Counted from the first letter of the stretch, positions 10,166 through 25,472 are shown. The stretch is 29,370 nucleotides of DNA from Patescibacteria group bacterium (GCA_018971765.1 JAGXAA010000002.1:1-29370); one strand, 5' to 3'. Notes: a model not told the origin generated them from the sequence alone. Numbers and translations: made by a program.

Positions 10166-10196
10166 CGTTTGGAAGTATCTTTTCCAAATCACTTTG

Positions 10197-10296
10197 ATTA
10201 CGAAACGGAAAAATTTAAGTCCTCGGGTCGCAAAAACTCTTTGTCTTTCAAGGTGTTTTTGCTCAACCAGACTGTAAATTTTTCCGCTTCGTAATT
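10197..10296. repeat. Repeat family A, copy 2 (100 nt)
   Basis: gattacgaaacggaaaaatttaagtcctcgggtcgcaaaa...gtttttgctcaaccagactgtaaatttttccgcttcgtaatt. Intergenic between rseP and a secreted-protein gene. Confidence 0.85.
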
Positions 10297-10416
10297 CACA
10301 GAAATCATGGAAAAATTATTTTCTCTTCTTAAACTTGCCGTCTGAAATTCTTCGGCCTTTTTATTTTGACCAGCGTATTTTTTTCCTGTATCATTTCGGC
10401 TATGAGGCAAATTTGA

Positions 10417-14486: not shown

Positions 14487-14666
14487 TTGAATCGCGAAAC
14501 TCTTTCTCGGTATGTCTTTTTTAGGGTACGGATTTTTTGAAGCTTAAAAAATCCTGAAGTTCTCGTCCCTCACCAGTTTTGATTTTAGAAATTTCCATTT
14601 CCAAAACTGGTGAGGGACTCGAAACCCCCTAAAAAAGACATACCTTCGACGAGTTTCGCAATGCAA
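14487..14666. repeat. Structured palindromic repeat family B, copy 2 (180 nt)
   Basis: Shares the outer inverted repeats and the central ggattttttgaagcttaaaaaatcc hairpin with copy 1. The second stem is compensated (gtatgtctttttta / taaaaaagacatac). The variable hairpin is a perfect 17-bp stem gtccctcaccagttttg / caaaactggtgagggac. Confidence 0.8.
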
Positions 14667-17755: not shown

Positions 17756-17784
17756 TTGCCCTCCTCTTTAAACGGCTATATAAT
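17756..17784 (+). promoter_or_regulatory. Candidate sigma-70 promoter TTGCCC-17-TATAAT for the methyltransferase/SBP operon
   Basis: ttgccctcctctttaaacggctatataat ends ~50 nt upstream of ATG 17836. It lies in the divergent intergenic region. Confidence 0.45.
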
Positions 17785-17835: not shown

Positions 17836-18363
17836 ATGTTCTCCGATCCGGCAAAAAATATCGAACAATTCGGACTTTCTAAAGGGATGTTCGTGGCTGA
17901 TTTTGGCGCCGGTTCGGGATTTTACGCGATGTCCGCCGCCAAAGCGGTGGGGGATAAAGGAAGAATCTACGCGATTGATGTCCAAAAAGATTTGCTTCAG
18001 AGAATAAAAAATCAAGCCAATACGGAACGAATGCCGAATATCGAGATAATTTGGGGCGATGTGGAGAAAATAGGAGGAACGAAGCTAAAAGACGATTCGA
18101 TTGACGCCGTGATAATCGCCAACATTCTCTTTCAAGCGGCGGAGAAAAATAATATTTGCCTTGAAGCGACAAGAATTTTAAAAAGAGGCGGAAGAGCGCT
18201 TGTGGTCGATTGGCGCGACTCTTTCGGCGGACTGGGGCCAAAACAAAGCGATGTTTTTTCGTCGTCCGTCGCGAAAGAAATTTTTCAGAAAAATAATTTC
18301 GCGCTCGAAAGGGAATTCAACGCCGGCGAACATCATTACGGGTTAATTTTTAAAAAACAATGA
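17836..18363 (+). CDS. Class I SAM-dependent methyltransferase
   Basis: Motif I VADFGAGSGFYAMSAA, motif II IYAIDVQ, and motif post-II VIIANILFQ. Confidence 0.7.
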   Translation: MFSDPAKNIEQFGLSKGMFVADFGAGSGFYAMSAAKAVGDKGRIYAIDVQKDLLQRIKNQANTERMPNIEIIWGDVEKIGGTKLKDDSIDAVIIANILFQAAEKNNICLEATRILKRGGRALVVDWRDSFGGLGPKQSDVFSSSVAKEIFQKNNFALEREFNAGEHHYGLIFKKQ

Positions 18364-19649
18364 GCAATTTTAGAATAGCGCTTACCGCAATATTCGCGAT
18401 TTTCATCGTAGTCGGCGTTATTATGTTTTCTCTTTCTCGCGGAGGTTCAAGCGGCGCGGGGGAGGAAATAACCCTCTGGGGGACTATTCCGGAATCGCTC
18501 TTCGTCAAATACTTGGACAGCGTTAATTTAAACAGAAAAAACAAAGTATTGATCAAATATGTCGCGAAAGAAGCCAGTTCTTTTGACGCTGAATTTGTCG
18601 AGGCCTTGGCGAGCGGCACGGGGCCGGACGCCATTCTCCTTCCTCAAGACTCGATTCTTCGCCATAAAGACAAGATATATCCGATTCCTTACGGCACTCT
18701 TTCCGAGCGCGCTTTCAAAGACACTTTCATCCAAGAAGCGGAGCTTTATCTCTTTCCTGAGGGTATTATCGCTCTTCCTTTCACGATTGACCCTTTGGTG
18801 ATGTATTGGAACAGAGACATATTCACCGATGCCCTTATGGCGCAAGCGCCGTCTTATTGGGATGAATTTCCTTCTCTTGTCGGAAAAATCACAAAAGTCG
18901 ACAGCCAGCTGAACATCTTAAGAAGCGCGGCGGCATTGGGCGAATTCAGAAATATCGCAAGCGCCAAGGAAATAATTTCAATGCTCATATTTCAAGCGGG
19001 CAATCCCATCGTCAAAAACGATAACGGCAAGACGACAGCCGTTTTGAGCGACAGGATGGATTCGGCCATACCTCCTTCGGAAGCGGCGCTTCGCTTTTAC
19101 GCCGAGTTTTCAAATCCGTCAAAGACTTCTTACTCATGGAACAGGGCGCTCCCTCTTTCCACCTCTTATTTCTTAAGCGGAGATTTGGCGGTTTACTTCG
19201 GTTTCGCCTCGGAATTCGACGGAATTAAAATAAAAAATCCCAATCTTAATTTTGATGTCGCCGTTGTTCCGCAGAGAAGGGGCGCGAATACGAAAACCAC
19301 TTTTGGCGCGATGCAAGGCTTTGCTCTAGTCAAATCTTCCAAAAAATTATCGTCCGCTTGGAGCGCGATATCGACTCTCGCCAATAAGGACAATCTTTCG
19401 CTGTGGACAAAAACATCGGGATTGCCTCCCGTTCGGAGAGACTTGCTAAGCGCCGGTTCGGCTGACCCCGTCGGCTCAGTTTTTTACGCCTCCGCGATAA
19501 TATCCAAAGGGTGGCTTGATCCGAACAAGGAAGAGACTAATGCCGTATTTCAAAATATGGTAGAATCGATAATATCGGGAAAATCAATGCTTGACGAGGC
19601 TGTTCATCAAGCCGATCTTGAATTGCAAAGTATTCTGCCTCAAAAATAA
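18360..19649 (+). CDS. Membrane-anchored extracellular solute-binding protein (ABC-type SBP family 1-like), orphan
   Basis: N-terminal TM anchor. ITLWGTIPE...PDAILLPQD...LVMYWNRDIF resembles sugar-type SBPs. The start overlaps the methyltransferase stop (ATGA). No permease or ATPase is in the window. Confidence 0.5.
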   Translation: MSNFRIALTAIFAIFIVVGVIMFSLSRGGSSGAGEEITLWGTIPESLFVKYLDSVNLNRKNKVLIKYVAKEASSFDAEFVEALASGTGPDAILLPQDSILRHKDKIYPIPYGTLSERAFKDTFIQEAELYLFPEGIIALPFTIDPLVMYWNRDIFTDALMAQAPSYWDEFPSLVGKITKVDSQLNILRSAAALGEFRNIASAKEIISMLIFQAGNPIVKNDNGKTTAVLSDRMDSAIPPSEAALRFYAEFSNPSKTSYSWNRALPLSTSYFLSGDLAVYFGFASEFDGIKIKNPNLNFDVAVVPQRRGANTKTTFGAMQGFALVKSSKKLSSAWSAISTLANKDNLSLWTKTSGLPPVRRDLLSAGSADPVGSVFYASAIISKGWLDPNKEETNAVFQNMVESIISGKSMLDEAVHQADLELQSILPQK

Positions 19650-19657
19650 AAAATTTT

Positions 19658-20296
19658 ATGAAATGTTTAAAATTTCCAATAATGACGGCATTTTTGTTTT
19701 TTTTGAGCGTTGCGTTTCCTCTTTCAAGCTATGCCGCTTATTCCGGCAGCCCCAATCCGATAAGTCCCGGTTTCCAGCTTGTGCCCTGCGACGGCGTTTA
19801 TGTTCCCTGCGATTTCAACGCGCTGATGGAGCTCGTGAACAGAATCATCAGCTTCATTTTTTACCTTTCAATCCCTCTCGCCGCCATATCATTCTCTTAC
19901 GCCGGTTATCTTTATGTGAGCGCCGCGGGAAGCGAAGACAAGATCAAAGAAGCGCACAAAATTTTCGGGAAAGTTATGTGGGGGTTTATTTTGATGTCTT
20001 CAGCGTGGCTTATCGTCTATAGCATAACCAGCGTTCTTCTCGGCAACGATTTCAAAAATTCCAAAAGCAATCTTTTGAGAAATAACGGCGTTCAGAGCGG
20101 CAGTGGAAGCGGTAGCGGCGTTAATGGCGGAAGCGGAGGCGAAGCTGTCGGCAACGGATACAATAGCAGTGTCAGAGTTGGGATTATTAATAGAGGCGCA
20201 ACAGATGCGAAAAATCTCCAGTTTGATTTTGGAGATCAGAATAGCAGCGCGATTACGGATGTGAAAGACCTTCCGTTTAAATTTGGCAATCAGTAG
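19658..20296 (+). CDS. Exported two-helix-hairpin protein, paralog A (TrbC/VirB2-pilin-like topology) with Cys pair and Gly/Ser-rich C-terminal tail
   Basis: Signal peptide ...PLSSYA. Cys pair LVPCDGVYVPCD. The hairpin is ISFSYAGYLYVSAAGSEDKIKEAHKIFGKVMWGFILMSSAWLIV, then the tail SGSGSGSGVNGGSGGEAVGNG. Confidence 0.45.
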   Translation: MKCLKFPIMTAFLFFLSVAFPLSSYAAYSGSPNPISPGFQLVPCDGVYVPCDFNALMELVNRIISFIFYLSIPLAAISFSYAGYLYVSAAGSEDKIKEAHKIFGKVMWGFILMSSAWLIVYSITSVLLGNDFKNSKSNLLRNNGVQSGSGSGSGVNGGSGGEAVGNGYNSSVRVGIINRGATDAKNLQFDFGDQNSSAITDVKDLPFKFGNQ

Positions 20297-20320
20297 TCTT
20301 AAAATTTTAAAATCATTTTT

Positions 20321-20749
20321 ATGAAAAAATTAAATAAAAGGAAAATAGCGGTGATTACGGGGGCGGCGATTTTGTTATTTTTCGCACTGACTTTTCAACC
20401 TATCGTTTCGTTTGCCGCTCTAGACACTGAAGGCGGCAATAACGACAGTGGAAGAAGCGGCAACATCATCACGCTCAGAAATCCCCTCGGCAATAATATC
20501 AACAATCTCCCCGCATTCATCTATATGATCCTTGACATAGTCTTTCGCATCGGAGCGATTATGGCGGTCTTGGTCTTAATGTATGTCGGCTTTATGTTCG
20601 TAAGCGCGAGAGGCGACACGGAAAAGCTTGAGACGGCAAGAAGAGCTTTTCTTTGGACCGTCATCGGCATAGCTCTGCTTCTAGGAGGCAGGCTTATCGC
20701 GAGCATTATAGGCAACACCATAAGTCAAGTTTCCACGGGGATATACTAG
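20321..20749 (+). CDS. Exported two-helix-hairpin protein, paralog B (TrbC/VirB2-pilin-like)
   Basis: Signal peptide ...IVSFA. Hairpin LVLMYVGFMFVSARGDTEKLETARRAFLWTVIGIALLLGGRLIASIIGN. Confidence 0.45.
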   Translation: MKKLNKRKIAVITGAAILLFFALTFQPIVSFAALDTEGGNNDSGRSGNIITLRNPLGNNINNLPAFIYMILDIVFRIGAIMAVLVLMYVGFMFVSARGDTEKLETARRAFLWTVIGIALLLGGRLIASIIGNTISQVSTGIY

Positions 20750-20946
20750 AACCCATTTCAAAAATAATGAATAATCTAAACACCCAAATTTCGAGGAAAA
20801 AACAGAGGATGAGGAAGGAGGCGCAACTTTCGTTGCGACGACTGACGAAACTCTGTTTTTTGCCGAAATTTGGGCGTTTGGATATTCAAGCATTTTCAGT
20901 ATAGCTTTATAAGCGTTTATTTTTGAGATGGGTTCTAATCAAAATT

Positions 20947-21735
20947 ATGAAGAAAATAACTAATCTTAATGGATTATCAATTACGAAACGGGAAAATTCA
21001 GGTCCTCGGGTCGCAAAATCTCTTTGTTTCTTAAATGTTTTTGCTCAACCAGATCGTAAATTTTTCCGTTTCGTAATTAAAAGTAATAGATTAAAATTAT
21101 CGGCGATTATCCTTATATTTCTGATTATGCCGGCAATCACTTTCGCTTTTACGCGCGGTCCGGACGGTTATAATTATTACGACTATCAATCAAACTATCC
21201 TATTGGCGGCCTAATATTCGGCGGAGGCAGTTTCGGCGGCAGCGGTCTATTTTGTTCCGGCGGTTACTATCCCACTTTCTGCAGCGTTATTGAATTTTTC
21301 CTAGGTCTTATAGGAAAATCAATTCCGATTCTTATTTCCATCTCCATTATAGTTTTCGTCTGGGGCGTATTCAGATATGTTATGTACGAAGGAGAAGACA
21401 GGCAAAAAAGCAGAGATGTGATGATGTACGGGATCATCGGTCTGTTTGTAATGGTGTCGGTCTGGGGTTTGGTCGCGCTGGTATATAACACTTTCGGCCT
21501 AAATAATACCAACAACTCCATCTATTATTACGGCAGTGGCGGATATGGCATCGGAAGCGGCGGGGGAGGCGGATTTAGCGGCAGCGGGAGCGGATTGGGA
21601 AAGGCGGCTTTTGACGGCAGTAGCTCTGGCAACGGCGGCGCAAATGACAACACTTCCGGAAGTCCCTTTGGTTTGCCGCCAATCAAGCTCGCTCCCAGCG
21701 ATTTGTCCTTACCGCTTAACACTTCCATAAAATAA
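20947..21735 (+). CDS. Exported two-helix-hairpin protein, paralog C (TrbC/VirB2-pilin-like) with Cys pair and long Gly-rich tail. Repeat A copy 3 lies in-frame in its 5' end
   Basis: Cys pair FCSGGYYPTFC. Hairpin ISIIVFVWGVFRYVMYEGEDRQKSRDVMMYGIIGLFVMVSVWGLVALV. Tail YYYGSGGYGIGSGGGGGFSGSGSG. ATG 20947 (MKKIT...) resembles the paralog starts, but the frame runs through the 100-nt repeat. Alternatively the gene starts downstream at a non-ATG codon. The start is uncertain. Confidence 0.4.
   Translation: MKKITNLNGLSITKRENSGPRVAKSLCFLNVFAQPDRKFFRFVIKSNRLKLSAIILIFLIMPAITFAFTRGPDGYNYYDYQSNYPIGGLIFGGGSFGGSGLFCSGGYYPTFCSVIEFFLGLIGKSIPILISISIIVFVWGVFRYVMYEGEDRQKSRDVMMYGIIGLFVMVSVWGLVALVYNTFGLNNTNNSIYYYGSGGYGIGSGGGGGFSGSGSGLGKAAFDGSSSGNGGANDNTSGSPFGLPPIKLAPSDLSLPLNTSIK
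20979..21078. repeat. Repeat family A, copy 3 (100 nt), embedded in the open frame of paralog C
   Basis: aattacgaaacgggaaaattcaggtcctcgggtcgcaaaa...gtttttgctcaaccagatcgtaaatttttccgtttcgtaatt. Confidence 0.85.
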
Positions 21736-21756
21736 ACATAATAACTTATGATTCCG

Positions 21757-21860
21757 AATTACGAAACGCAAAATTTAGGTCCTCGGGTCGCAAAAACTCT
21801 TTAATGTTATCACAAGGTGTTTTTGCTCAACCAGACCATAAATTTTCGCGTTTCGTAATT
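21757..21860. repeat. Repeat family A, copy 4 (104 nt)
   Basis: A perfect 16-bp terminal inverted repeat ccgaattacgaaacgc / gcgtttcgtaattcgg with the same conserved core. It sits between paralogs C and D. Confidence 0.85.
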
Positions 21861-21951
21861 CGGGATTATGCACAGCCCGCTTGCCTTTTATTGTATGAGA
21901 GTTATAATTTATTAACTTGAAAGAAAGTCAATTATTAATTATCAAATTCTT

Positions 21952-22293
21952 ATGAAAAAAATTATTTCAATCGTTTCCGTGTGCGCTCTCCCGTTTTTCG
22001 CCTTGGCGCAAGGCACCGTTATTGACGCGCAAACATTATTCGCCGAGGTGAACACCATACTGAATTCGATTCTGCCGATTATCATTTCCATCGCCATAAT
22101 TTGGTTTGTCTATAACGCTTTTATATATATGGTTGCCGCCGATGAAGAAAAGAAAGGTGAAGCTAAATCAAAAATGATTTACGGCCTCATAGCCATATTC
22201 GTGATGGTATCAGTTTGGGGATTGGTTAATGTTTTGAAAGGCACTTTCAATCTTAATAATGGCACAATCCCTCCGCCCATTTTGCTTAGATAA
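21952..22293 (+). CDS. Exported two-helix-hairpin protein, paralog D (TrbC/VirB2-pilin-like)
   Basis: Signal peptide MKKIISIVSVCALPFFALAQG. Hairpin IAIIWFVYNAFIYMVAADEEKKGEAKSKMIYGLIAIFVMVSVWGLVNVL. Confidence 0.45.
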   Translation: MKKIISIVSVCALPFFALAQGTVIDAQTLFAEVNTILNSILPIIISIAIIWFVYNAFIYMVAADEEKKGEAKSKMIYGLIAIFVMVSVWGLVNVLKGTFNLNNGTIPPPILLR

Positions 22294-22633
22294 TTTTCCA
22301 TTTTATTCTATGCCCGTCTTTATAAGCATCGCCCGCGCCCAAGGAACGACAAATGCCATAGGCGGCACTTTTTCCCAACTTCTATACAATATTGAAATAT
22401 TCATATTGAATCCGATCATTTATCTTCTTTTTGGTTTGGCTCTAATCATATTTCTTTACGGCGTTTTTGAATTTATCAAAAATTCTGAAAGCGAAGAAGA
22501 GAGGAAGAAGGGCGGGGAACATATGCTCTGGGGGATTATCGGCATGGCGATAATGTTTTCGGCGTACGGAATCATCAATTTCATTCTAAACACCTTGGGG
22601 AACATCGGCTACGGTTATTCGTCATTCTTCTAA
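22259..22633 (+). CDS. Exported two-helix-hairpin protein, paralog E (TrbC/VirB2-pilin-like)
   Basis: ...SIARAQG cleavage-like site (compare paralog D's ALAQG). Hairpin LALIIFLYGVFEFIKNSESEEERKKGGEHMLWGIIGMAIMFSAYGIINFIL. The start is either 22259, overlapping D by 35 nt, or the internal ATG at 22310. Confidence 0.4.
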   Translation: MAQSLRPFCLDNFPFYSMPVFISIARAQGTTNAIGGTFSQLLYNIEIFILNPIIYLLFGLALIIFLYGVFEFIKNSESEEERKKGGEHMLWGIIGMAIMFSAYGIINFILNTLGNIGYGYSSFF

Positions 22634-22721
22634 ATTATCGCGATTGATTGCGATTGAAATTAAAAAAGCGAGGCGAGATTTTGGAATTAAATCCATCATC
22701 TCTCCTCGCTTTTGCATTTAT

Positions 22722-23291
22722 TCAATTCAACAGTTCTAACTGCAGATATGCCCAATCAGGGAGGTCGATGTCGCTGATTTCTCCCCTGTATAATTTAGGG
22801 TTGTTTTTATCTTTTTTAAGATACCAATTTCCCCCATTAGGCGAATTTATCCAACTCCCCTCAATTCTATCTCCAACTTTCCTTCCGTAATAGTGGCTGT
22901 CTTCATTTCTGCTGATGTGGACGGTAAAGCAAAATTTATCGCCATCCTCCGTTACTGTGGCATTCAGATGTCCACTGGTTCTCTTTTCCGGATTACTGCC
23001 ATATTGATGCGGCTTTTTAATCCAAATGTAAGAGGCGGGCATTGATGATTTGGTCTTGAAATGCTTTGGAACTGTCAAAATAGCTCCAATAATCGCCGAA
23101 ATTATCGCAATGGGAATAATCCAATTCCAAATTTTCCCGTAGCTTTTTCTTGTTTCTGCTATTGGTATTGTGGTTATAGGGACTTGTGATTTTTTGGCAT
23201 TCTCTCCATTGATGAGATCCATTAGAGATTTGATTGAATAAGATATTCCAATCACCCCTAATATAATGCCTACAATCTTAAACCAATTCAT
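22722..23291 (-). CDS. Two-TM membrane protein with a C-terminal beta-rich domain, operonic with the SPFH protein (NfeD-like partner)
   Basis: N-terminal TM helices (IVGIILGVIGISY; IIPIAIISAIIGAIL). Its start overlaps the SPFH stop by 4 nt (ATGA). The NfeD call rests on topology and gene context only. Confidence 0.35.
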   Translation of the reverse strand: MNWFKIVGIILGVIGISYSIKSLMDLINGENAKKSQVPITTIPIAETRKSYGKIWNWIIPIAIISAIIGAILTVPKHFKTKSSMPASYIWIKKPHQYGSNPEKRTSGHLNATVTEDGDKFCFTVHISRNEDSHYYGRKVGDRIEGSWINSPNGGNWYLKKDKNNPKLYRGEISDIDLPDWAYLQLELLN

Positions 23292-24505
23292 TTTTTGCCC
23301 CCAGTCTTTTTATCATCGTCGTCATCCGGAGATTTAGTTTTTTTCAAAATTTCCTGAACGCTGGAAATAAGACTGCCTAGACCTTCAGGTATGATGCTGT
23401 ATTTAGCGTTTTTCAAGGCTTCTTCTTGGGTTTTTGATATAATCGCAACCTTACCTTCCGTCGTTTTGGCTACCCCCGCTATTTTTTCCAGCCCTTCCGC
23501 TTCAGCTTCCAAGAAAGATAATCTGGCGTTGGCAACTCCTGTGCCCTTATCCGTTTCAAATTTTTTCTCTCCTTCCCCTTCAAGTTCGCGTGACTTTTTC
23601 TTTTTTTCCGCTTCTTTTACGCCAACCTCGTAACGCAGTTTTGAATCAGCAACATCTCGCAAGCTTTGATTTATTGTCTTGCTTAAATCAACATCCGCAA
23701 GTTGGACATTTATAACATTTATTCCCCAGCTTTCTTCTTGATTAAATGAGTCAGGATCTTCAGGGTCGGGTATTTCACCGACCAAAATCTCAATTTTTTC
23801 CCTTAATTTTCTGTTTATCTCCTCCTTGTCTATAATAATTAAGGCAGGAGTTCTTTTTGGAAATTCGATGTTTAAGACAGAATCCACCGTATCTCTCATC
23901 TGGGAAACTGCATGTTCTATGCTGCCAATGTTCGTTAAGAAAGAGATAAAGTCGTCACCCCTTATTTGAAATCTAACCACAACAGACGGTTCCAATGTCA
24001 TTATTTCATTAAGAGGATGGTCTTTAAATTCTTTAATCCGAACTTTATCTTCATCTGATATCATATCCCTTGATGCCGTTGTTACCCTTATGGGTTTTAG
24101 GTATCCGGTTGGGACCGGTCTATTGTCTAGGCCAGATTTATCCACAAATTCCGGCTCGGCAGGAAATTGCTCTTTGATTACAAGTTTTGTTTCCTTTGCC
24201 AGTTGACAAACTATGAAAGGAACATACACTAAACCGGATTTGACTTGATGTAATGGTCTGCCAAACAGAAGCACTGCGCCCAAAGATTTTGGACCGACAG
24301 TCCTAAAGCTCAACCCAAAATGAAAAAACTCGATAGAAAGTATTGCCCAACCCAAGTTCCATTTATTTTTTTCATCAATAGAAACCTCCTTTTCCATAAG
24401 AACCAGCGCAACACAGGCAAAAATGGCGTATGTCACCATTACCCATATCCACAATGAAATCATATTTTTCCGCTCTTTCTTAAAATTGTCACTTTTATCA
24501 ACCAT
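23288..24505 (-). CDS. SPFH/band-7 (stomatin/prohibitin/HflK-like) membrane protein
   Basis: N-terminal TM, then the band-7 core FRTVGPKSLGAVLLFGRPLHQVKSGLVYVPFIV ... and a coiled-coil charged segment (EAEKKKKSRELEGEGEKK). Confidence 0.75.
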   Translation of the reverse strand: MVDKSDNFKKERKNMISLWIWVMVTYAIFACVALVLMEKEVSIDEKNKWNLGWAILSIEFFHFGLSFRTVGPKSLGAVLLFGRPLHQVKSGLVYVPFIVCQLAKETKLVIKEQFPAEPEFVDKSGLDNRPVPTGYLKPIRVTTASRDMISDEDKVRIKEFKDHPLNEIMTLEPSVVVRFQIRGDDFISFLTNIGSIEHAVSQMRDTVDSVLNIEFPKRTPALIIIDKEEINRKLREKIEILVGEIPDPEDPDSFNQEESWGINVINVQLADVDLSKTINQSLRDVADSKLRYEVGVKEAEKKKKSRELEGEGEKKFETDKGTGVANARLSFLEAEAEGLEKIAGVAKTTEGKVAIISKTQEEALKNAKYSIIPEGLGSLISSVQEILKKTKSPDDDDDKKTGGKK

Positions 24506-24726: not shown

Positions 24727-25257
24727 TTACATTACTTCACACTTATTAGAAAATACATAATGGTTGCTTTTCATTGCCGTATGGCACTCATAGCAACCCT
24801 TAACAGGATCGATGTTTTTAGAAACTTTTGTTTTTCCGTCAAAAGCCTCAAAAAACCACCCGCCTGTTGTTGTTGCGGGGGAATATTTTATCATTACGGC
24901 GATCCAATTTGGATCGCCCTTAATGACATCGCCATGCGGTCCCTCCGGGATTGGTTCATTGAACTCAAGAACCAATCTGCTTCCTTCAGGATATTCCCCC
25001 CTGCCACTTTTATAAGTTGGCAGAGCGGTATCGCTGACAAGCACCCTTTGAAATCCGTAAAAGGGGCTTGTCTTGTCCAACACCACTTTTGACGCAGTGT
25101 TGGTCCAAAACTGGTATCCGTCGGGATACCCATTGTGCAAGACAACTGTCACAGCCGGCTCGGACTCGGACGAAGGACTATTTGTTGTCGTCGCGCAACC
25201 CGCGACATAAATAAAAAATCCAAAAAACGCCACCAATAACCCCAAAATTTTTTTCAT
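24727..25257 (-). CDS. Lipoprotein with a C-terminal CxxCH haem-c-type motif (possible cytochrome P460 / c'-beta-like fold)
   Basis: Start placed at the internal ATG (MKKILGLLVAFFGFFIYVAGC) with lipobox VAGC; the longer ORF-track start lacks a signal. The C-terminus reads ...TGGWFFEAFDGKTKVSKNIDPVKGCYECHTAMKSNHYVFS. Confidence 0.5.
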   Translation of the reverse strand: MKKILGLLVAFFGFFIYVAGCATTTNSPSSESEPAVTVVLHNGYPDGYQFWTNTASKVVLDKTSPFYGFQRVLVSDTALPTYKSGRGEYPEGSRLVLEFNEPIPEGPHGDVIKGDPNWIAVMIKYSPATTTGGWFFEAFDGKTKVSKNIDPVKGCYECHTAMKSNHYVFSNKCEVM

Positions 25258-25472
25258 CTTCAACCCCCACTTAAAAAAGTAAAAAAATAAAATACGCAAA
25301 CCTGCTAATTTTCTCCTTTCCTTAAAATTTTTCAAAATTCAATATAATCTGTATCTAAAAAATATACTAATCATTAATTTAAAAAAGTCAAGCCGCGCGA
25401 ATTTATGCCGGTTAATTCTCGTGATTTAACTACAAGACTTCACTCAAATCAGACATAGGATATAAGCATTTT

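Follow-up and report, generated by a model that had tools for sequence, protein, structure and literature searches.

A tandem array of five predicted type IV secretion pilins is part of a conserved Paceibacteria operon that also encodes a sugar-type solute-binding protein and a methyltransferase

Much of the uncultured diversity of bacteria belongs to the Patescibacteria, which rely on contact with host cells. Their type IV secretion system (T4SS), which has VirB2-like pilins, is to our knowledge the only one so far shown to be needed for growth. A 29,370-nucleotide stretch of DNA from a Patescibacteria group bacterium (GCA_018971765.1 JAGXAA010000002.1:1-29370; hereafter, the window) carries at positions 19658-22633 five consecutive + strand genes, which an original prediction made from the nucleotide sequence alone had read as a tandem array of exported, VirB2/TrbC-pilin-like hairpin proteins in an organism of the candidate phyla radiation type, with no secretion machinery at their side. 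The source is indeed a Patescibacteria metagenome-assembled genome (MAG), and the locus raises the question of what five pilin-like proteins do when they are encoded apart from any machine that could assemble them. Our analysis indicated that the array is the predicted pilin part of a vertically inherited operon of Paceibacteria (Parcubacteria), composed of an S-adenosylmethionine (SAM)-dependent methyltransferase, a solute-binding protein (SBP), and ordered paralogues of the family PF18895. The five genes are named g1 to g5 in order, and positions are window coordinates unless a locus label (L002, L004, L006, L009, and so on) precedes them.

We confirmed the five open reading frames (ORFs) where they had been placed. 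The first, g1 (19658-20296, +), encodes 212 aa, with the hairpin at about residues 56-129 and a Gly/Ser/Asn-rich C-terminal tail of about 80 aa, and g2 (20321-20749, +) encodes 142 aa, with a putative signal peptide (..VSFA↓AL, where the arrow marks the cleavage site) and the hairpin. The third, g3 (+), runs from an ATG at 20947, with a TTG at 20923, to 21735 and encodes 262 aa from the ATG, laid out as an interrupted signal peptide, a Gly-rich N-terminal region, the hairpin, and a Gly/Ser-rich C-terminal tail of about 75 aa. The most conserved member of the array, g4 (21952-22293, +), encodes 113 aa comprising a putative signal peptide (..FALA↓QG) and the hairpin, while g5 ends at 22633 (+) and encodes 107 aa from the ATG at 22310 or 124 aa from the ATG at 22259. 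Pairwise identity among the five products was 25-46%, and blastp linked g3 with g4 (1.3e-13, 46% identity), g3 with g5 (7e-12), g4 with g5 (1e-10), g1 with g2 (7e-8), g2 with g5 (6e-7), and g1 with g5 (9e-5), indicating that the paralogy of the predicted proteins is far beyond chance and is not an accidental pattern. The five loop sequences and the helix-2 core motif that had been quoted for the array were found as written. Each product has two Kyte-Doolittle hydrophobic segments beyond the N-terminal one, and AlphaFold2, run on g4 with an alignment of 71 sequences, gave a model with a mean pLDDT of 81, reaching about 90 in the hairpin, and with helices at residues 2-20, 26-61, and 65-98 that correspond to a signal helix plus hairpin. 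Both the hydropathy of the five proteins and this model thus bear out the predicted helical-hairpin topology.

To which family these proteins belong was addressed with profile searches, and the pilin models that the original prediction had proposed for this purpose gave matches. PF18895 (T4SS_pilin, gathering threshold 26.6 bits) was the top Pfam family for all five products, with scores of 25.6 (g1), 32.4 (g2), 21.3 (g3), 41.5 (g4), and 34.6 bits (g5); hence, g2, g4, and g5 were above the threshold, and g1 and g3 just under it. A hidden Markov model (HMM) built from g4 homologues matched g1 (E = 2e-22) and g3 (E = 6e-34), and all but 2 of the 81 g4 homologues listed carry PF18895. In NCBIfam, the 'Mbov_0395 family pilin-like conjugal transfer protein' (NF045849, curated cut-off of 40 bits) was passed by g4 with 43.8 bits, with g5 (36.9), g2 (24.6), g3 (14.9), and g1 (12.9) under the cut-off. 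The best sequence match of the g4-family profile in the PDB was TraM, the pilin of pKM101 (8cw4, E = 0.0026). Structure searches returned many unrelated membrane hairpins and did not separate a pilin from other hairpins. Collectively, the profile matches make membership of the array proteins in PF18895 well supported.

Arrays of this kind have been reported before in the phylum. In a survey of 3035 Patescibacteria genomes with PF18895, PF04956, and other profiles, VirB4 was found in 2417; VirB2-like pilins occurred in 1948 of the VirB4-positive assemblies, only 1135 of which had them near virB4 (Quinonero-Coronel et al. 2025, PMC12102498). The same study described 441 arrays of 2-11 VirB2-like pilin genes in 383 assemblies, with a mean identity of 25% and a maximum of 54%, an array being defined as two or more pilin-profile genes, in tandem or one non-pilin gene apart, whose copies have low identity. 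The five adjacent genes of this Patescibacteria MAG, with products 25-46% identical, fall within this definition. In Southlakia epibionticum, transposon sequencing showed that epibiotic growth requires a predicted pilin series inside the T4SS cluster (SEML1_0006-0019 region; Wang et al. 2023, PMC10633639); this array consists of six VirB2-like pilins, and the T4SS there has been described as an exception among monoderm T4SS (2025 review, PMC12857230). Moreover, genes with a T4SS-pilin domain are among the most highly expressed genes of unknown function in cultured Paceibacterales (Kuroda et al. 2024, PMC10936435). The array is therefore a kind of object already known in Patescibacteria and not a novel family, and five tandem copies, once thought unusual, are well within the reported range.

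What sets the array apart is the company it keeps. A gene for a class I SAM-dependent methyltransferase of 175 aa (17836-18363, +; Pfam Methyltransf_31/25/11), for which NCBIfam gave just generic, partial ArsM/UbiE-like matches, overlaps with its stop the start of the SBP gene by 4 nt (ATGA). The SBP (18360-19649, +) is an extracellular solute-binding protein of 429 aa with an N-terminal transmembrane (TM) helix that would anchor it to the membrane (Pfam SBP_bac_8), and only 8 nt separate its gene from g1. Its family profile matched MBP1, a sugar-binding protein (PDB 4r9f, the closest solved relative), over the full length with E = 1.3e-16, which by homology makes it a bona fide member of the MalE/sugar-type SBP fold family. 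No ATP-binding cassette (ABC) permease or ATPase partner lay near the SBP gene in the window, and no such family recurred beside it in the 80 loci described below. A candidate promoter of the operon, TTGCCC-17-TATAAT (17756-17784, +), was found by a consensus scan as a pattern match only, with 10/12 matches. At the other end, a perfectly adjacent inverted repeat (GCGAGG...CCTCGC) followed by TTTTGCATTT lies at 22664-22713 (no strand assigned), between g5 and a convergent gene for a 189-aa protein; this element, detected by an inverted-repeat scan and sequence reading and not reported by the consensus terminator scan, is a probable terminator of the operon.

To assess how constant this arrangement is, we examined the homologues in other genomes. 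Homologues of g4 with 80%, 63%, and 46% identity were found in the same context, i.e., methyltransferase, SBP_bac_8, and then 4-5 pilin genes, despite differing outer flanks; a fourth context (45% identity) came from a fragmented assembly. The search was extended with the SBP, which had 2858 homologues at about 50% identity; its profile, searched against one genome per GTDB species, gave 582 relatives, and 80 loci from Taylor-, Zambryski-, Wolfe-, and Nomurabacteria and other Paceibacteria were fetched. Four contigs that end at the SBP gene were excluded. In 76/76 loci with downstream sequence, the pilin-family HMM recognised 4-8 pilin ORFs that directly follow the 3' end of the SBP gene in the same orientation, so that comparable tandem arrays were present in every informative locus. 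Directly 5' of the SBP gene, a methyltransferase homologue was found in 70 of the approximately 80 loci, and in most of these the ATGA overlap of 4 nt recurs. Other neighbours seen in the window were rarely kept among these loci: an SPFH protein in 9, cytochrome P460 in 1, and PBP2 in 1. In most Paceibacteria, the block runs further upstream (S1 protein, Lactamase_B_3, GyrA, methyltransferase), and gyrA, found upstream in most species, is absent from the window; in the window lineage, PBP2-dgkA-HAD has taken the place of gyrA and the rest of these upstream genes, with the methyltransferase-SBP-pilin block intact. The GC content at the array (0.42-0.46) is like that of its flanks, and the GC skew is likewise no different. 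Together with the conservation of the operon in every related species examined and the purifying selection described next, this contradicts the earlier view of an accessory island.

The order of the paralogues in 63 complete arrays was then analysed by finding, for each pilin ORF, the window paralogue that it matches best. The arrays almost always began with '12' and ended with '45', and 18/63 had exactly '12345'. The first position was of the g1 type in nearly all species, the second (g2) and last (g5) positions were conserved, and the larger arrays, of 6-8 genes, had grown in the middle by g3/g4/g5-like copies. When compared with the nearest relative, 80% identical in g4, the ratio of nonsynonymous to synonymous substitution rates (dN/dS) was 0.24 for g1, 0.13 for g2, 0.16 for g3, 0.12 for g4, and 0.09 for g5, with dS of about 0.9-1.3. 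All five genes are under purifying selection. The fixed order and low dN/dS argue against recent duplication, pseudogenisation, and diversifying 'antigenic variation', and point to five non-redundant subunits.

Outside the hairpin, the members of the array vary more freely in length. The Gly/Ser-rich tails of g1 and g3 of the window (about 75-80 aa) are missing in the nearest relative, and in other species the expansion falls between the signal peptide and the hairpin. One array protein of 2170 aa, from another Patescibacteria MAG (L009 9747-16259), combines He_PIG, Big_9, cadherin-like, PKD, and fn3 domains with the hairpin at residues 2089-2166; from its domain content, we classify it as an adhesin-pilin fusion, and the position of the hairpin at the end of a giant protein with adhesin domains supports a surface role. 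Several other arrays have members of 280-540 aa with long N-terminal regions and the hairpin at the C-terminus. In some species, 1-2 extra pilin-family genes were observed outside the main array, on the opposite strand and a few kb upstream of the SBP gene (L013 980-1528, L038 5377-5925, L050 8890-9396, and L079 807-1852, all on the - strand). In two loci from ERZ1286166 contigs, L004 and L006, many genes were fragmented, including SBP, mraZ/mraW, gyrA, infB, and some pilins; this looks like a frameshift-prone assembly rather than biology. The gyrA of L006 also carries an intein-splicing domain.

Each of the five proteins had been predicted to carry a signal peptide, which we judged by inspection of n-h-c regions and A-x-A sites. 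Canonical n-h-c regions with an A-x-A-type site were present in g1 (..SSYA↓AY), g2, and g4, in agreement with the prediction, and in the family alignment the Pro at -6 and the Ala at -1 of the cleavage site were nearly invariant. In g3, the cleavage site is kept, and the n-region holds an in-frame palindromic repeat of about 37 codons (20979-21090) with no stop codon. The g3 orthologue of the closest relative (L002) reads MMKKSFKLKLGKSGLYVELLLLVLPIFTFA↓FVRGPDGYNYY, without the insert, and that of L004 reads MKNIIKFKRLVLLAVISCLILPAISFA↓LVRGQDGYNYY, while the N-terminus of g3 in the window reads MKKITNLNGL, then about 37 extra residues, then RLKLSAIILIFLIMPAITFA↓FTRGPDGYNYY. No canonical start codon was found by sequence reading between the insert and the hydrophobic core. 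Because the insert is in frame and no start codon follows it, g3 would be either made with a basic n-region of 48 residues or poorly exported.

For g5, the prediction did not hold. From the ATG at 22310, the start used in the NCBI gene call (107-aa product), the N-terminus is a 10-residue remnant, MPVFISIARA↓QG, and the 27-residue 'signal' exists only from the upstream ATG at 22259, which overlaps g4 by 35 nt. Last-position orthologues in other species have 79-103 aa; they start 10-12 residues ahead of a ..A-x-A↓QG/AT remnant or lack the motif wholly, and the closest one starts MPAFLSIASAQG. Since the orthologues have short N-termini and the NCBI start is the ATG at 22310, we conclude that the predicted g5 product is without a real signal peptide.

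The repeat inside g3 is one of four copies, about 105-115 nt long, of a palindromic element resembling miniature inverted-repeat transposable elements or repetitive extragenic palindromes (MITE/REP-like; no strand assigned), found by a repeat scan and alignment of the copies at 206-311, 10193-10308, 20979-21090, and 21748-21872. Three copies are intergenic and one is within g3, and all form long hairpins (-34 to -57 kcal/mol, z from -6 to -11.5). The copy in the g3 signal-peptide n-region has z = -6.2, and the one in the g3-g4 spacer folds with -56.7 kcal/mol (z = -11.5). A separate palindromic element of 136 nt (20761-20896, no strand assigned; fold -59.8 kcal/mol, z = -10) fills the spacer between g2 and g3, a place where the closest relative (L002) has just 8 nt and no such element. 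The core motif of the repeat, GTCCTCGGGTCGCAAAA, was absent from 86/86 loci of other genomes, including the closest relative. The repeats between and within the array genes had been correctly noticed, and by their distribution they are recent, genome-specific insertions; a part in the design of the array was ruled out, as none of the other genomes examined has them. Another palindromic repeat family, unrelated to the first, was observed at 2633-2787 and 14487-14666. Its 79-nt direct copies are 87% identical and have inverted arms of their own; one lies in the intergenic region after a gene for a 511-aa protein and the other in that after mreC.

What could such a set of proteins build? The reading that we favour, and consider reasonably probable, is that the five proteins would make up a heteromeric surface filament of the T4SS type that contacts the host, with its assembly machinery encoded elsewhere in the genome. 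According to it, g1-g4 would be exported by Sec, cut by signal peptidase I, and kept in the cytoplasmic membrane as helical hairpins of N-out/C-out topology, whose short charged loop faces the cytoplasm, and g5 would be inserted without cleavage. The hairpins would then be extracted and polymerised by a separately encoded Patescibacteria-type (MPF-FATA-like) VirB4/VirB6/VirB3 machinery, as in the T4SS of Southlakia epibionticum, yielding a heteromeric surface filament in contact with the host cell. We infer these export, assembly, and filament steps from established T4SS biology and the Saccharibacteria data. The g4 and g5 types would probably be core subunits, and the g1 and g3 types, with their variable extracellular extensions, could be minor or adhesive ones. 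The SBP could be a carbohydrate-recognising receptor, an adhesin, or an assembly partner, and a coupled role of the methyltransferase is speculative.

Several observations weigh against this filament reading. On the 47.7 kb contig JAGWOM010000003.1 of the MAG GCA_028870935.1, which contains the window and of which positions 6408-47734 were covered, no T4SS gene (VirB4, VirB6, VirB3, VirD4) was detected, either in the window or in the rest of the covered part; the earlier statement that no secretion machinery lies within 10 kb was thus not only confirmed but also extended. Likewise, in none of about 80 species did VirB4, VirB6, or VirD4 occur within 10 kb of the operon, the 41 kb covered on this contig were also free of them, and a T4SS in this genome is not established from the contig sequence. 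Large ORFs near the operon in the 80 loci were screened for VirB4-like ATPases, and none was found; these ORFs encoded ABC-F/ABC ATPases, ValRS, GyrB, MurJ, PriA, a lipase-like hydrolase, and adhesins. The present assembly, GCA_020847275, and GCA_041643075 are not listed in the supplementary tables of PMC12102498. An obligatory link with an SBP has no known precedent in T4SS biology. Concerning the family, the threshold of PF04956 (TrbC/VirB2, 27.9 bits) was reached by none of the five proteins, the best scores being 22.4 (g2), 16.0 (g5), and 11.3 bits (g4); the label 'VirB2/TrbC-pilin-like' holds with regard to the PF18895 matches and the NF045849 match of g4, while membership in VirB2/TrbC proper is not established. 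In addition, no pilus built of PF18895 proteins was found in the PDB copies searched or the literature consulted, where the papers speak of predicted pilins and of a 'potential' for pili.

The principal rival, which we regard as unlikely, is a T4SS-independent membrane complex. The five distinct hairpins would stay in the cytoplasmic membrane and, with the anchored SBP, form a hetero-oligomeric channel, receptor, or uptake device for host carbohydrate that replaces an ABC permease. The linkage of SBP and array in 76/76 loci, the tight spacing (4-nt overlap, 8-nt gap), and the constancy in set and order of paralogues that are non-redundant and under purifying selection are in agreement with this idea, as are the bona fide sugar type of the SBP, the lack of any ABC permease/ATPase or T4SS gene nearby in any locus, and the inability of structure searches to separate a pilin from other hairpins. 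However, the sequence homology is specifically to pilin families, and the giant fusion with adhesin domains and the very high expression (PMC10936435) fit a structural surface role better. Moreover, such a complex has no energising component, and searches of Pfam, NCBIfam, and the PDB gave no transporter made of VirB2-like hairpins. A broader proposal, to which we give a rather low probability, is that the methyltransferase-SBP-(g1..g5) operon would be a self-contained, undescribed surface or membrane apparatus of Paceibacteria, possibly independent of VirB4, in which the five ordered, non-redundant hairpins work obligatorily with a sugar-binding SBP. In one form, a heteropolymeric filament, the SBP might be the tip adhesin or receptor, and in the other, an uptake channel built of hairpins, it might be the gate; if this were true, the apparatus would capture host-derived carbohydrates or dock to host envelopes.

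It could also be argued that the adjacency of methyltransferase, SBP, and pilin genes is inherited gene order only, with the pilins serving a T4SS and the other two proteins doing unrelated housekeeping. The broader upstream synteny in most Paceibacteria (S1 protein, Lactamase_B_3, GyrA, methyltransferase) and the merely generic family matches of the methyltransferase favour this possibility, but the block has stayed intact, with overlapping or abutting frames, though the window lineage swapped its upstream genes and the downstream genes vary, and we therefore consider it improbable. It is very improbable that the array is a fast-evolving pilin cassette of recent duplication, carried on an accessory island and serving antigenic or host-range variation, by the Bartonella/Anaplasma analogy drawn in PMC12102498. 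Such a cassette would explain the divergence of the paralogues (25-46% identity), the tail lengths of g1 and g3 that vary between close relatives, and the array size of 4-8 reached by expansion of the middle (g3/g4/g5-like) genes. Nevertheless, positions are orthologous across species with about 45-50% SBP identity, dN/dS is 0.09-0.24, there is no compositional anomaly, and the chromosomal operon context is the same everywhere, and this alternative is largely refuted by the positional orthology. Finally, small size and two TM helices are generic features, and unrelated hairpins are numerous among the results of structure searches, but holins, bacteriocin immunity proteins, or secreted membrane-active peptides are highly improbable, as searches of Pfam, NCBIfam, and PADLOC gave no holin, immunity, or defence family match for g1-g5, the neighbourhood lacks genes of lysins, bacteriocins, or phages, and the operon is a conserved part of the chromosomal core.

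The remaining genes of the window are mostly of the housekeeping type, i.e., rpsM/K/D, rpoA, rplQ, rplM, rpsI, holB, frr, an M50 protease, proS, mreB/C, PBP2, and dgkA, with mraZ/mraW downstream. Rfam and tRNA scans of the window were empty, and the sole PADLOC match in it was a generic methyltransferase domain. A divergent SPFH/Band_7 protein of 405 aa is encoded next to the array, its gene overlapping by 4 nt that of the 189-aa two-TM protein (22722-24505, -). The latter had no family match, leaving the NfeD identity once proposed for it unsupported, and the pair was rejected as a part of the system, as only 9 of about 80 loci had an SPFH homologue downstream of the array and 3 had the 189-aa gene. 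Unexpectedly for a lineage generally described as without respiratory and nitrogen-oxide metabolism, the window also encodes a protein of the cytochrome P460 family (24727-25335, -; E = 1e-21), which is conserved in the closest relative L002. The 511-aa ORF mentioned above (1051-2586, +) directly follows a DsbA-like thioredoxin gene and had no Pfam match and a faint MerT/CopZ-like match in NCBIfam. On the same contig, about 9.6 kb upstream of the window start, a predicted surface protein of 2368 aa (L088 411-7517) has LTD, Big_5, CarboxypepD_reg, and PG_binding_1 domains.

The novelty of the locus lies in a very conserved operon that joins a pilin array to an SBP and a methyltransferase, for which we found no earlier mention in the searched literature; targeted full-text searches, made with limited literature access, gave no mention of the SBP/methyltransferase linkage, the positional orthology, or the signal-less last member. 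Pilins of Paceibacteria thus emerge as an ordered set of at least five distinct subunits under purifying selection, co-encoded with an orphan sugar-type SBP and a methyltransferase and never with the T4SS ATPase, and such a fixed, co-encoded set argues against simple antigenic variation. This raises the hypotheses of a heteropolymeric filament with major and minor subunits, of the SBP as an adhesin, receptor, or assembly factor, and of a last subunit inserted without a signal peptide.

When compared with known systems, the closest are the T4SS pilin arrays of Patescibacteria (PMC12102498, PMC10633639), which share the phylum, the family PF18895, divergent tandem hairpins (mean identity of about 25%), and a chromosomal location that often does not adjoin virB4. 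Unlike them, arrays of the window type were never near T4SS genes in about 80 species, and the operon with SBP and methyltransferase, the fixed positional orthology, and the signal-less last member set them apart from the arrays as described. The Mbov_0395 pilin-like protein of Mycoplasma integrative and conjugative elements (NF045849) has similar hairpins of about 80 residues and comes from wall-less or monoderm bacteria with a T4SS of the MPF-FATA class; its gene is single-copy and lies in a mobile conjugative element by VirB4/TraE-like genes, whereas here a chromosomal operon of several paralogues is found without mobility genes. The VirB2/TrbC/TraM/TraA pilins (PF04956; 8cw4, 5LEG-type) and the archaeal Ced/Ted pilins (8dft, 8dfu) have in common with the array proteins a signal peptide (putative in g1-g4), two hydrophobic helices, and a short charged loop, a compatible fold with weak profile similarity (TrbC 22.4 bits; TraM E = 0.0026). 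In contrast to the VirB2/TrbC pilins, adjacent genes for VirB4, VirB5, or VirB6 are missing here, as are enzymes for cyclisation or acetylation, and five non-identical predicted subunits take the place of one major pilin. Lastly, Bartonella and Anaplasma also have several divergent virB2 paralogues in a row; those copies are thought to serve antigenic or host variation, whereas the conserved order and purifying selection of the Paceibacteria array point to non-redundant subunits.

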